A stretch of DNA of 64,000 nt from the sequence record MT446422.1, one strand, 5' to 3'. A program made the translations under genes and the position numbers. Positions 11,221-49,776 of this stretch are shown here, in pieces; position 1 is the first letter of the stretch; each line of letters begins with the position of its first letter. The notes below the pieces were generated by a model that did not search any database, was not told the DNA's origin, and was given only the letters and a program-made list of their open reading frames with translations. Source of the stretch: Escherichia virus TH57.

Positions 11221-11394
11221 ATGAGTACCAAAATTGAAGTTGGCCGCCACAAAGGTCGTTTAATTGAACATTCACTTTACGAATTGTCGGATTCTCGTAA
11301 GTTACCCGATGAAGAATCTGCTTTAATTTTTGCCGCGGCGGATTATATCCATTGGCTTGAAGCACAACTTCGCTTTTCTGATGAGGTCTTTTAA
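11221..11394 (+). CDS. hypothetical small protein
   Basis: 57-aa ORF whose stop overlaps the next ATG; not in track. Confidence 0.35.
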   Translation: MSTKIEVGRHKGRLIEHSLYELSDSRKLPDEESALIFAAADYIHWLEAQLRFSDEVF

Positions 11395-11663
11395 TGTTTT
11401 TAGAAATTGTTAATATTCATGCTGCTCAATCAGGTTTTATGAAAGAGCTTCAAGACGCAGGATTTAAAAATGGCGATGTTATCCAGGCGTTAAGACAACG
11501 TTTTGACCCTGATGTTGAATGTAATGTTTGGGACGTTGTTGAAACAGATGAATACCTTTTTGATACCATAGAAATTGAAGGGTCATGGACTTGTATCACT
11601 GAGTATATGATAATTGATAATGGTAACGTTGAATGCCATTATCCTTGTTTTAGGATTGTTTAA
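11394..11663 (+). CDS. hypothetical protein
   Basis: 89-aa ORF. Confidence 0.5.
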   Translation: MFLEIVNIHAAQSGFMKELQDAGFKNGDVIQALRQRFDPDVECNVWDVVETDEYLFDTIEIEGSWTCITEYMIIDNGNVECHYPCFRIV

Positions 11664-11839
11664 TGAAAACTAAATTAGTCTATACTGAAAAGTTAAATGG
11701 TGCCAAGGTCTGGAAACTTCTTATCAAAGGAAGTCCTACTGACCAGTTTATGGCCACCTGTGTGGGATTGTATACTCGCCCTACCAAAAAGATGATTCGT
11801 CAATTTAAACGGTTGCATCGCTCGTTCTATAATATTTAA
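11663..11839 (+). CDS. hypothetical small protein
   Basis: 58-aa ORF, TAATG overlap with upstream gene; not in track. Confidence 0.4.
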   Translation: MKTKLVYTEKLNGAKVWKLLIKGSPTDQFMATCVGLYTRPTKKMIRQFKRLHRSFYNI

Positions 11840-11844
11840 TAAAT

Positions 11845-11869
11845 ACCCTTATCTAATAATGGTAAGGGT
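11845..11869 (+). promoter_or_regulatory. 5' UTR hairpin sequestering the gene 49 ribosome-binding site
   Basis: 7-bp stem ACCCTTA/TAAGGGT with 11-nt loop; the AAGGG SD lies in the 3' arm 6 nt before the ATG. Confidence 0.5.
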
Positions 11870-11874
11870 TTATT

Positions 11875-12348
11875 ATGTTGTTGACTGGCAAATTATACAA
11901 AGAAGAAAAACAAAAACTTTATGATGCACAAGCTGGTAAGTGTCCAATTTGCCACCGTGATTTGGACTCTGATGTTCAGGCCAACCATCTTGACCATGAC
12001 CACGAATTGAACGGGCCAAAAGCCGGTAAGGTTCGCGGGTTACTATGCAATCTGTGCAATGGAACAGAAGGGCAAATGAAGCATAAGTTCAGCCGTTCGG
12101 GTCTGAAAGGTCGTGATGTTGACTACCTGGAATGGTTGGAGAGTTTGCTTGTCTATCTGAAATCTGATTATACCGAAAACAATATTCACCCCAATTTTGT
12201 AACAGACAAAGCCAAAGAGTTTGGCCGCCTGGGGAAAGAAGAAATGATTCGGGAAATGCTTTTGAATGGTATGACTTATAATGAATCTGACACCAAAACA
12301 CAATTAATGGCTTCATTTAAGAAGCAGCTTAGAAAGAGTTTAAAATGA
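11875..12348 (+). CDS. 49: endonuclease VII, Holliday junction resolvase
   Basis: 157 aa, near-identical to recalled T4 gp49 including Zn-binding cysteines. Confidence 0.92.
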   Translation: MLLTGKLYKEEKQKLYDAQAGKCPICHRDLDSDVQANHLDHDHELNGPKAGKVRGLLCNLCNGTEGQMKHKFSRSGLKGRDVDYLEWLESLLVYLKSDYTENNIHPNFVTDKAKEFGRLGKEEMIREMLLNGMTYNESDTKTQLMASFKKQLRKSLK

Positions 12349-23500: not shown

Positions 23501-24196
23501 ATGAAATTCTCTAAAGACACTATCGCAGTTCTGAAAAACTTCACCTCCATCTACTCTGGCATTATGCTTAAGCCAGGTAATACCATCCTGACCCGTTCTG
23601 TAACTGGAGCGTCATATGGCGAAGCCGAAATCAATGATACAATTGACTTTGAAGCTGCGATTTATGACCTGAACGGCTTCTTAAGTATCCTGGGCCTGGT
23701 AACTGACCAAGCTGAAGTATCTCTGGCTGAAGATGCATCGAATATCATTATCAAAGACCAACGTTCAACGATTCACTGGCCTGCAGCAGACCCGAGCACT
23801 ATCGTGTTCCCTGCTAAGAAGATTCCTTTCCCGGTAGCTAAGGTTATCTTCGACCTGAAAGGCAGTGACCTGCAGCAGCTTCTGCGTGTGGCTGGTGGTT
23901 TGTCTCTGGATACTTTTGCAATCACCAACAAAGACGGTAAGATTGTTATCCATGGTTATAACCAGCTCGAAGATAAAGAATTAGCGCGTCCATTGTATTC
24001 CCTGGTGTGTGGTGATTACGAAGGTGATGCAGCGTTTAAATTTATCATTAACAAACTGAACATGAAAATGATTCCGGCTGATTACCGTGTTATGCTTTGG
24101 GCAAAAGATGATAAATTTGCTACGAAGTTTGAAGGTACACAAGCAAGCTATGTGATTGCAATGGAACAAGGCTCTAGCCACGAATTCCAAGATTAA
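23501..24196 (+). CDS. 45: sliding clamp gp45
   Basis: 231 aa; extensive identity to recalled T4 gp45. Confidence 0.93.
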   Translation: MKFSKDTIAVLKNFTSIYSGIMLKPGNTILTRSVTGASYGEAEINDTIDFEAAIYDLNGFLSILGLVTDQAEVSLAEDASNIIIKDQRSTIHWPAADPSTIVFPAKKIPFPVAKVIFDLKGSDLQQLLRVAGGLSLDTFAITNKDGKIVIHGYNQLEDKELARPLYSLVCGDYEGDAAFKFIINKLNMKMIPADYRVMLWAKDDKFATKFEGTQASYVIAMEQGSSHEFQD

Positions 24197-24254
24197 TAAA
24201 TGGGGCTTCGGCCCCATGGAGTACAAAGTAGAAACTAATATGAGGAAAATAATA

Positions 24255-46662: not shown

Positions 46663-46887
46663 ATGTTTAATGAAGATTGTGTGACCACTTCCCTGACTGC
46701 TGAAGAGTTTTGGGATACTGCTGAAAGTGATAAAGTGATTGTGAAGAAAAACATCAATGAATTTCTTTGCACCACTGATATCATTTATGTGTATGCAGAC
46801 AAAGACGCAGAACTACCTAGCTATGCGTTGTTCCGTGAAGAATCAGAAGATGGTACAGATTTTTGGAAGGAGATTTATAATGTCTAA
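46663..46887 (+). CDS. hypothetical acidic protein
   Basis: 74-aa ORF with GAGGAGAA SD. Confidence 0.5.
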   Translation: MFNEDCVTTSLTAEEFWDTAESDKVIVKKNINEFLCTTDIIYVYADKDAELPSYALFREESEDGTDFWKEIYNV

Positions 46888-47750: not shown

Positions 47751-49583
47751 ATGATGATTAATAATGAAATTAAAGTACTCTCGGACGTCGAGCATATCAA
47801 AAAACGTTCCGGGATGTATATTGGTTCCAGTTCAAATGAAGCGCATGAGCGATTCTTGTTTGGTGAATATAAGTCCGTAAGCTATGTTCCTGGTATTGTA
47901 AAACTGATTGATGAAATTATTGATAACTCTGTTGATGAAGCAATTCGCACCAGTTTTAAATTTGCCAATAAAATTGATGTCCAAATTAAAGATAATCAGA
48001 TTTCGGTTTCTGATAATGGCCGTGGTATTCCACAGGCAATGGTTACAGACCAAAACGGTGAACAAATCCCTGGCCCTGTTGCAGCATGGACTATTCCAAA
48101 AGCAGGTGGCAACTTCGGCGATGATGCTGAACGTAAAACTGGCGGGATGAATGGCGTCGGGTCTTCTCTGACCAATATTTTCTCCGTATTGTTCACCGGG
48201 ATTACCGCTGATGGGGCGAACGAAATTACTGTTAACTGCTCCAACGGTATGGAAAACAAATGTTGGTCGACTAAGAAATCAAAGGGTAAAGGTACGACTG
48301 TTATATTTATTCCAGATTTTAGTCACTTTGAAGAAAATAGTCTGTCCCAGATTTATCTGGATATTACATTGGACCGTCTGCAGACTCTTGCTGTTGTTTA
48401 TCCGGATATTCAGTTCACCTTTAATGGTAAAAAGGTTGATGGCAACTTCAAGAAGTTCTCCAAGCAATTCGGAACCGAAGTTGTTATTCAGGAAACTGAT
48501 ACAGTATCGATGGCCTTTACGACCAGCCCAGACGGTTTCCGTCAGTTGACTTATGTCAACAACATTCATACAAAGAATGGCGGACACCACGTTGAATGTG
48601 TTATGGATGATATCTGTGAACACCTTCAGCCGGCGATTAAGCGCAAATATAAAGGCATTGAGGTGACCAAGGCACGAGTTAAAGAATGTCTCACCATGCT
48701 TATGTTCATCCGCGATATGAGCAACATGCGATTTGATTCCCAAACCAAGGAGCGATTGACTTCTCCGGCTGGTGAAATCCGAAATCACATTAAGATTGAT
48801 GCTAAGAAAATCGCGCAAGCTATTCTGAAAAATGAACCGCTGATTATGCCGATTGTTGAAGCTGCATTAGCCCGTAAATTGGCTGCAGAGAAAGCAGCAG
48901 AGACTAAGGCAAATAAGAAAGCTTCAAAGGCCAAGGTACAAAAGCATATCAAGGCCAACGAATGGGGCAATGATAAGTTGGAAACGACTCTATTCCTGAC
49001 CGAAGGGGATTCTGCAACTGGCCCATTTATCAAGGTTCGCGACCGTGAATTGCAGGGTGCTTATCCATTACGGGGCAAGTTTAAAAACACATGGGGCCTG
49101 AAAGCTATTGACGTTATGAAGAACGCTGAAGCCTTTGATGTGTGTGCAATTACTGGATTAACGATTGGACAACCGGCCGAGAATATGAATTACCGAAACA
49201 TTGCTATCATGACAGATGCGGATGTGGATGGTGTCGGTAGTATCTATCCATCGTTATTGGCGTTTTTCAGTAACTGGCCAGAGCTGTTCCATGAAGGACG
49301 AATTCGCTTTGTGAAAACTCCTGTTATTATTGCGCAGCTCAAAGATAAACAAGAATGGTTCTATTCTCTTCCTGACTATGAAGAAGCTAAGGATAAACTT
49401 CCGAAGCACACCATCCGATACATCAAGGGACTTGGTTCTCTGGAAGATGCCGAGTACAAACGCGTATTGCTCGAACCGGTATTCGAAGTTGTTCAATTGC
49501 CTGACAACTGGAAAGAACTGTTTGAAATGTTATTCGGTAAAGATTCCCAGCAGCGCAAAGATTGGATGAATGCGACGCTATAA
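47751..49583 (+). CDS. 39: DNA topoisomerase II large subunit gp39 (ATPase), unsplit
   Basis: 610 aa continuous ORF covering the region that T4 splits into genes 39 and 60. Confidence 0.92.
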   Translation: MMINNEIKVLSDVEHIKKRSGMYIGSSSNEAHERFLFGEYKSVSYVPGIVKLIDEIIDNSVDEAIRTSFKFANKIDVQIKDNQISVSDNGRGIPQAMVTDQNGEQIPGPVAAWTIPKAGGNFGDDAERKTGGMNGVGSSLTNIFSVLFTGITADGANEITVNCSNGMENKCWSTKKSKGKGTTVIFIPDFSHFEENSLSQIYLDITLDRLQTLAVVYPDIQFTFNGKKVDGNFKKFSKQFGTEVVIQETDTVSMAFTTSPDGFRQLTYVNNIHTKNGGHHVECVMDDICEHLQPAIKRKYKGIEVTKARVKECLTMLMFIRDMSNMRFDSQTKERLTSPAGEIRNHIKIDAKKIAQAILKNEPLIMPIVEAALARKLAAEKAAETKANKKASKAKVQKHIKANEWGNDKLETTLFLTEGDSATGPFIKVRDRELQGAYPLRGKFKNTWGLKAIDVMKNAEAFDVCAITGLTIGQPAENMNYRNIAIMTDADVDGVGSIYPSLLAFFSNWPELFHEGRIRFVKTPVIIAQLKDKQEWFYSLPDYEEAKDKLPKHTIRYIKGLGSLEDAEYKRVLLEPVFEVVQLPDNWKELFEMLFGKDSQQRKDWMNATL

Positions 49584-49586
49584 ATA
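49579..49586 (+). promoter_or_regulatory. late promoter TATAAATA overlapping the gene 39 stop
   Basis: exact TATAAATA. Confidence 0.45.
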
Positions 49587-49591
49587 GATGT

Positions 49592-49607
49592 GGGAGAATA
49601 TTCTCCC
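49592..49607 (+). repeat. perfect 16-bp palindrome
   Basis: GGGAGAATATTCTCCC between the late promoter and the next ATG. Confidence 0.9.
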
Positions 49608-49623
49608 GCTACTAGGAGACAAT

Positions 49624-49776
49624 ATGACTAAATACTGGATTACACTCGCTACCGGTGAATATGGTTTTCTCTGGGCAGAGAAAAAGCCTTTGTTTGCAGA
49701 ATTTGTAACAATCACGTGCGAAACCTGGGAAGGTGAAACTTTCATGGCGTATGGTCAAGTCTATAAAGTAGAATAA
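49624..49776 (+). CDS. hypothetical small protein
   Basis: 50 aa from ATG with AGGAGA SD; followed by terminator. Confidence 0.4.
   Translation: MTKYWITLATGEYGFLWAEKKPLFAEFVTITCETWEGETFMAYGQVYKVE

Follow-up and report, generated by a model that had tools for sequence, protein, structure and literature searches.

The window analysed here, a stretch of 64,000 nucleotides from Escherichia virus TH57 (sequence record MT446422.1), contains gene 49 within a series of tightly packed ORFs that are all encoded on the same strand, and the gene is followed by nrdD and nrdG. The encoded recombination endonuclease VII (gp49) has the Pfam domains PF02945 and PF09124, is 100% identical to the protein of Escherichia virus TH40 and about 84% identical to gp49 of T4 (tblastn), and around the gene the window shares about 97% identity with Gaprivervirus VR20. 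Upstream of gene 49, the gene pin, which encodes the Lon inhibitor in T4, is found in a split form: a 59-aa ORF at 11215-11394 matches residues 102-145 of Pin (Pfam Inhibitor_I24), the last 17 residues of a 58-aa ORF match residues 144-160, and an unrelated 89-aa ORF (11394-11663) separates the two pieces. The last approximately 50 nt of pin have been retained together with the promoter and hairpin region and with gene 49 as one block. The 3' end of the 89-aa ORF also harbours a weak terminator-like hairpin (11616-11643; 10 pairs, tail CTTGTTTTAG), which lies some 20 nt upstream of the ATG of the next ORF (11663).

The region in front of gene 49 (11838-11877) reads AATAAATACCCTTATCTAATAATGGTAAGGGTTTATTATG, and the features found in it are listed in Table 1. 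The initial annotation had described an SD sequence of gene 49 that is sequestered in a 7-bp stem, with a motif resembling a late promoter at the base of the hairpin, and all these elements were found at the positions given for them: the box AATAAATA was correctly placed, ACCCTTA (11845-11851) can pair along its full length with its reverse complement TAAGGGT (11863-11869), and AAGGG is part of the 3' arm, with a spacer of 6 nt to the AUG. The final A of the box is at the same time the first paired base of the hairpin. The TAA stop codon of the 58-aa ORF (11837-11839) shares two bases with the start of the box, and 5 nt separate its end from the stem. The RNA folding that had been suggested as a check showed that the stem is real, and that it grows from 7 to 9 bp by the additional pairs U52-G62 and C53-G61 (ViennaRNA). 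The core hairpin has a free energy of −11.6 kcal/mol (z −3.4), which is equalled by 1 of 200 dinucleotide shuffles. With upstream sequence included, two A/U helices (11837-11842/11870-11875 and 11829-11834/11876-11881) extend the stem and thereby also pair the AUG, and the resulting fold of 81 nt reaches −22.2 kcal/mol (z −4.9), a value that none of 200 shuffles equals. The 5' strands of these extension helices exist only in RNAs that were started upstream.

Table 1. Features of the gene 49 region in the analysed window.
Feature	Positions	Strand	Basis or remark
58-aa ORF (DUF7279) upstream of gene 49	11663..11839	+	last 17 aa match the T4 Pin C-terminus
5' strands of two A/U extension helices (11829-11834, 11837-11842)	11829..11842	+	folding
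Late-promoter (gp55-type) box AATAAATA, A(−13) variant of TATAAATA	11838..11845	+	identical in T4
5' arm of 9-bp stem, ACCCUUAUC, anti-SD strand	11845..11853	+	folding, covariation
Predicted late transcription start, A	11851	+	−13 to −6 rule (PMC1524935), position analysis
Hairpin loop UAAUAAU, 7 nt	11854..11860	+	folding
3' arm of stem, GGUAAGGGU, containing SD AAGGG (11864-11868)	11861..11869	+	sequence, folding
3' strands of extension helices, pairing AUG (11875-11877) and codon 2	11870..11881	+	folding
Gene 49, recombination endonuclease VII (gp49), 157 aa	11875..12348	+	Pfam, tblastn
Codon 53 of gene 49, GTT	12031..12033	+	internal GUG start in T4; no start codon here

The degree of sequestration was quantified as the opening cost, i.e., the ensemble free energy needed to make positions −14 to +3 single-stranded with 100 nt of upstream context, and this cost was compared over about 106 roughly called gene starts in the 64-kb window. 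The SD-to-AUG region of gene 49 requires 18.0 kcal/mol and holds rank 2 of these starts, for which the median is 5.5 and the 90th percentile 10.4 kcal/mol, and gene 49 is the only one among the 15 most sequestered starts that has a TAAATA within 60 nt upstream. In contrast to the 18.0 kcal/mol with 100 nt upstream, the opening cost is only 3.0 kcal/mol in an RNA that begins at 11851; such an RNA folds with −2.9 kcal/mol and an empty centroid, and the late-type leader is less structured than shuffled sequences (z +1.3 for 50 nt and +2.5 for 100 nt). At the level of sequence, the locus has two hallmarks of a T4-type switch, namely a helix that covers the translation start, the SD being paired in the 9-bp stem and the AUG by the A/U extension, and a predicted +1 inside the 5' arm, by which the late RNA would lack the 5' strand of the helix. 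A scan of 11500-12200 against Rfam gave sub-threshold chance matches only, and therefore no curated family covers the element.

Three other gene starts on the plus strand (40293, 54670, and 45034) also have a strongly sequestered SD, with opening costs of 15-18.5 kcal/mol. Within the approximately 80 nt upstream of each of them, an early-type sigma-70 promoter (GTTTAC or GTGTAC, approximately 17 nt, then (C/T)ATAAT) adjoins the 5' arm of a hairpin of 10-15 bp whose 3' arm carries the SD. The logic of a promoter at the hairpin base is the same as in gene 49, but the promoters are of the early type; read-through RNA would be silent at these starts, and promoter-proximal RNA would be translatable. 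A further hairpin, GGGGCTTCGGCCCC with a UUCG loop, was seen in the region 24190-24218, directly 5' of an ATG at 24216 and preceded by TTAATAAAT.

The box of T4 late promoters occupies positions −13 to −6 relative to the transcription start (PMC1524935), and the gp55-type consensus for these positions is TATAAATA. It had been noted that AATAAATA deviates from this consensus by one mismatch, and indeed 7 of the 8 positions agree, the exception being the A at −13. Position −13 is poorly conserved and is A or T in several T4-like phages (Nolan et al., PMC1524935), and a list of 50 T4 late-promoter sites contains 32 perfect ones and 9 with an A at −13, the commonest natural variant in T4 (Geiduschek and Kassavetis, PMC2988020). 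Since the gene 49 site of T4 itself shares this A(−13), the single mismatch should not be regarded as a weakness of the candidate promoter. Among the relatives, A, T, C, or G is found at −13, and the TAAATA core is invariant. Application of the −13 to −6 rule places the predicted start at A11851, which is 6 nt past the box and represents the seventh base of the 5' arm.

With both strands counted, the word WATAAATA occurs 7 times in the 64-kb window, in comparison to 12.1 ± 3.5 times in shuffled sequences, and it is thus under-represented. Six of these sites (932, 11838, 35654, 38099, 49579, and, on the minus strand, 63028) are positioned 16-71 nt 5' of an SD and a start codon on the same strand. 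The under-representation and the position of six of the seven sites near gene starts indicate that the motif is not a background A/T word, and its distribution is what would be expected of a real promoter word under selection. The seventh site, a AATAAATA at 48304-48311 on the minus strand, lies within long open frames, and no credible SD-preceded gene start was found downstream of it on its own strand. In the region 49579-49624, the consensus TATAAATA at 49579 is followed by a GGGAGAATATTCTCCC hairpin, which leaves the downstream SD (TAGGAGA) uncovered. Two additional promoter candidates close to the gene 49 hairpin were rejected. The sequence TATAATAT at 11828-11835 has three mismatches to TATAAATA and was dismissed as a second late box. 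A sigma-70-like site with 10 of 12 matches (TTTAAA-18-TATAAT, 11804-11833) lies just 5' of the hairpin, inside the upstream ORF, and an RNA starting from it would still carry the entire 9-bp stem. Its TATAAT hexamer is present in the window and in the relatives L005, L006, and L009, and the site is missing in T4 and VR20. Sigma-70-like sites occur upstream at background rate (26, with 24.1 expected by chance), and this site is probably a chance occurrence; on account of this rate, its position inside the ORF, and its absence from T4 and VR20, it was rejected as a part of the switch.

At a G+C content of about 26%, 7-bp stems and A/T-rich octamers are individually common, and one could ask whether a hairpin and an A/T-rich near-consensus word simply co-occur by chance at this position. 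The fold statistics (z −3.4 to −4.9, with 0 or 1 of 200 shuffles equalling the fold) and the under-representation of WATAAATA (7 versus 12.1 expected) speak against this, as do the match to a characterised T4 element and the compensatory covariation among 29 distinct sequences. It is because of the covariation and conservation data that we regard chance as practically excluded. These data come from 46 gp49 loci from IMG/VR and from T4, which yielded 29 distinct sequences from box to AUG. All 29 fold into an SD-containing hairpin that starts at or within the last bases of TAAATA, and they do so with differing stems, such as CCCUUAUC/GGUAAGGG, GUUCAUCU/AGGUGAAC, CUCUUAUC/GGUAAGAG, CCUCUAUA/UAUAGAGG, or GAGUCAU/AUGACUC, and with loops that vary in sequence and length. 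In an unfitted MAFFT alignment of the 29 sequences, there is an 8-bp helix with 91.3% of the cells paired, in 6 of its 8 pairs both partners have changed, and there are 56 compensatory cells, as compared with 18.0 ± 4.4 after column shuffling, where none of 500 shuffles reached 56. Pairing falls to 39-49% when the 3' partner is slid by 1-3 columns as a control, and it rises to 96.7% in a model-fitted alignment. Over the unfitted and fitted alignments, 55-56 compensatory cells stand against 16.5-18 in shuffles, which is the excess expected of a helix under selection. From these comparisons, the helix sequence appears to turn over through compensatory change. In a set of 37 sequences, the predicted +1 falls in nearly all cases on an A at a constant position of the 5' arm, and the mean opening cost is 14.8 kcal/mol for early-type RNA versus 3.9 kcal/mol for late-type RNA that begins at the predicted +1. 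A covariance model built from the relatives has its only match with E < 0.01 in the window at 11838-11880 (42.9 bits, E 1e-5); a second match at 932-968 (E 0.81) is not significant and was discarded.

The promoter core follows the late consensus of the respective lineage, and the box probably tracks the gp55 specificity of that lineage. Four Aeh1-like phages carry CTAAATA at gene 49, which is the divergent late consensus that has been reported for Aeh1 (PMC1524935). A TAAATA-type box together with a hairpin over the SD or the AUG was also found in seven distant Straboviridae phages, namely PspYZU05, Miro, Henu6, AS-gz, Aeromonas 31.2, JSE, and Milchi, and the geometry differs among them. In PspYZU05, the box TATAAATA is in the loop of the hairpin, and the anti-SD arm is upstream of the box. 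In the Aeromonas phages AS-gz and 31.2, the arm beside TTAAATA pairs not with the SD, but with the AUG and codons 2-3. The geometry of the putative switch thus seems to have been re-invented at least twice, once in PspYZU05 and once in the Aeromonas phages. The sampling covered Tequatrovirus, Gaprivervirus, Aeh1-like phages, Krischvirus, Slopekvirus, Zedzedvirus, Tulanevirus, Biquartavirus, Jiangsuvirus, and a Pseudomonas phage, and in every sampled group a late-promoter core adjoins a hairpin over the SD or AUG of gp49. It is therefore likely that the gene 49 switch is a pan-Straboviridae module that has been kept through the whole history of the family, and not a peculiarity of the T-even phages. 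We found no published phylogenetic treatment of the gene 49 switch; the review that touches on the subject covers genes e and 25 only.

The position of the hairpin between two genes raises the question of whether it could mainly be an intrinsic terminator or a 3'-end stabiliser of the upstream early unit, with an incidental overlap with the SD. A permissive scan for terminator-like structures indeed lists 11845-11869, with 9 pairs, of which 4 are G-C, and the tail TTATTATGTT with 5 T in 8 positions, the sequence UUUAUUAU comes right after the hairpin, and in the relatives the distance from the upstream stop codon to the hairpin is nearly always about 0-20 nt. In the record of the Escherichia phage G50 (MK327942.1, 43495-43517; L050 494-516), the homologous hairpin is even labelled as a "putative transcriptional terminator, −10.70". 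What the structure shares with a Rho-independent terminator is a stem-loop that is followed by a U-rich stretch. However, a Rho-independent terminator has a G+C-rich stem and an uninterrupted, conserved U-tract, whereas the stem here has only moderate stability and little G+C, its U-tract is interrupted as well as unconserved, and the SD of the next gene forms the 3' arm. The U-richness derives from the SD-AUG spacer and from the Met-Leu-Leu codons, and it is missing in those Aeh1-like, PS2, Klebsiella, and Aeromonas relatives that nevertheless retain the hairpin. In AS-gz and 31.2, the 3' arm consists of the AUG and codons 2-3 of gene 49, and there is no terminator geometry at all. Furthermore, the upstream gene varies (pin, nrdC, or unknown ORFs), but the hairpin always contains the SD or AUG of gp49, and it always adjoins a late-promoter box, whatever the lineage. 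A primary function in termination is therefore improbable, and we consider a terminator role, which might exist in part alongside the translational one, to be secondary at most. In the G50 record, a hairpin that sequesters the ribosome-binding site has probably been mislabelled, and because public records of relatives label the hairpin as a terminator, the finding is useful for annotation.

The proximity of the upstream stop codon could also point to translational coupling, in which ribosomes that end at 11837-11839 would open the base of the stem and pass on to the SD of gene 49, and expression of gene 49 would then track upstream translation rather than the time of infection. A terminating ribosome covers some nucleotides downstream of the stop codon, roughly on the scale of the 5 nt between stop and stem. 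As the distance is that short, ribosomes might transiently melt the stem base and thereby allow some early translation, and in nearly all relatives the upstream stop lies 0-14 nt before TAAATA. The distance from stop to stem is 2-19 nt in most relatives and 11 nt in T4; the 5 nt of the window result from the rearrangement of the upstream gene, a remnant of pin. A terminating ribosome, however, would reach no more than 3-4 of the 9 stem pairs, and coupling leaves unexplained why every lineage has an invariant late-promoter core with a +1 inside the 5' arm, and why the Aeh1-like phages have switched to CTAAATA. The T4 literature also regards the structure as inhibitory (PMC3014915). We thus consider it highly improbable that coupling is what governs gene 49 expression at this locus.

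The arrangement is best explained by the temporal switch known from T4. The T4 sequence (NC_000866, reverse strand, upstream of gene 49 at 46855) is AATAAATACCCTTATCTATTTAAGGTAAGGGTTTATTATG, and T4 and the window both carry AATAAATACCCTTATC...GGTAAGGGTTTATTATG. The box AATAAATA, the stem ACCCUUAUC/GGUAAGGGU, the SD, and the SD-AUG spacing are the same, and the box adjoins the 5' arm alike, whereas differences are confined to three loop bases and one base of codon 2. Over the stretch from the box to codon 2, the two sequences share 39 of 43 nt, and in both cases the gp49 gene is directly downstream, as would be the case for orthologous elements. On the basis of the homology to T4 and the computational analyses, the element is very probably the ortholog of the temporal translation switch of T4 gene 49. 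The initial annotation had proposed that the arrangement is conserved, and this view is strengthened by the sequence comparison, as box, stem, SD, and spacing are those of T4 and covariation extends through the family. The covariation, together with the predicted late start at A11851 in the 5' arm, supports the switch mechanism; promoter activity, start site, and differential translation in TH57 are inferred.

Early and middle transcripts would start far upstream, cross the genes from nrdC to the pin remnant, and read into gene 49. Such an RNA would hold both arms of the hairpin, the 9-bp stem would enclose the SD and the A/U extension the AUG, and we propose that 30S subunits therefore bind poorly. 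Endonuclease VII would thus be withheld as long as branched replication and recombination intermediates are still needed. Once DNA replication has begun, RNA polymerase with gp55 and gp33 would recognise AATAAATA and start at about A11851, inside the 5' arm. The late RNA would be devoid of the anti-SD strand, and we propose that its initiation region is therefore open, so that gp49 could be translated late, when packaging requires the resolution of branches. The family-wide conservation of the arrangement supports the rationale that a junction-resolving nuclease must stay off until late infection.

One aspect of the T4 system does not seem to apply to TH57. In work of Barth, Powell, Trupin and Mosig from 1988 (Genetics 120:329), T4 gene 49 was reportedly found to be transcribed early and late from different promoters. 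The first ribosome-binding site of the early RNA is said to be in a hairpin, by which early synthesis is limited to a 12-kDa product from an internal GUG, and late RNAs begun just upstream reportedly give rise to the 18-kDa enzyme. The nested T4 product has 105 residues, and its GUG is found at codon 53, preceded by AGGAAAG. As codon 53 is GTT in the window, this part of the T4 story is not transferable, and the early RNA of TH57 is therefore probably without any gp49-derived protein. Codon 53 is GTG in only 5 of 46 sequences (the window, T4, and 44 IMG/VR loci); the other forms are GTT, GTC, GTA, and ATT, and GTA is found even in some close relatives of T4. It follows that the system does not include the nested protein as a conserved element, and this 12-kDa product seems to be restricted to a few lineages.

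The mechanism as such is already known from T4, the functional bases are unchanged here, and it is thus not novel. In TH57, a textbook regulatory device of T4 has been re-identified in a close relative, which matters little for this phage by itself, and what can be added to the reviews is modest: the family-wide covariation, the lineage-matched box, and the non-conserved internal GUG. The locus can also serve as a clean positive control for the detection of promoter-in-hairpin switches from sequence only.

According to reviews, T4 gene 49 belongs with e, soc, and I-TevI to a group in which the ribosome-binding site is sequestered in early transcripts and freed in transcripts from late promoters, with the SD and/or the AUG held in a helix, and the paradigm is detailed for gene e only (PMC3014915). 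A second review, by Edgell et al., makes the same statement and cites Barth et al. (1988) for gene 49 (PMC2988022); the "39" in its text is evidently a misprint for 49. The statement of the initial annotation that the T4 hairpin blocks translation and is bypassed by a late transcript agrees with these two reviews, in which gene 49 is named (PMC3014915, PMC2988022). The leader of the T4 lysozyme gene e follows the same logic, as early transcripts fold an inhibitory helix over the translation initiation region (TIR), and late promoters within the sequence of the 5' strand give rise to an open, well-translated RNA (PMC3014915), and related phages have leaders similar to that of T4 gene e (PMC3014915). 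Gene e differs in gene and sequence, and also in having two late promoters, experimentally mapped 5' ends, and a measured 100-fold effect (McPheeters et al., 1986, via PMC3014915). The same arrangement of a late promoter just 5' of or within a hairpin is found in T4 soc, I-TevI, I-TevII, I-TevIII, and segB, and in Aeh1 mobE, where the hairpins sequester the ribosome-binding site on polycistronic early and middle RNAs (PMC2988022). The sequences and genes of this group are unrelated to gene 49, and in the case of I-TevI the hairpin has the additional role of protecting the folding of the intron (PMC3014915).
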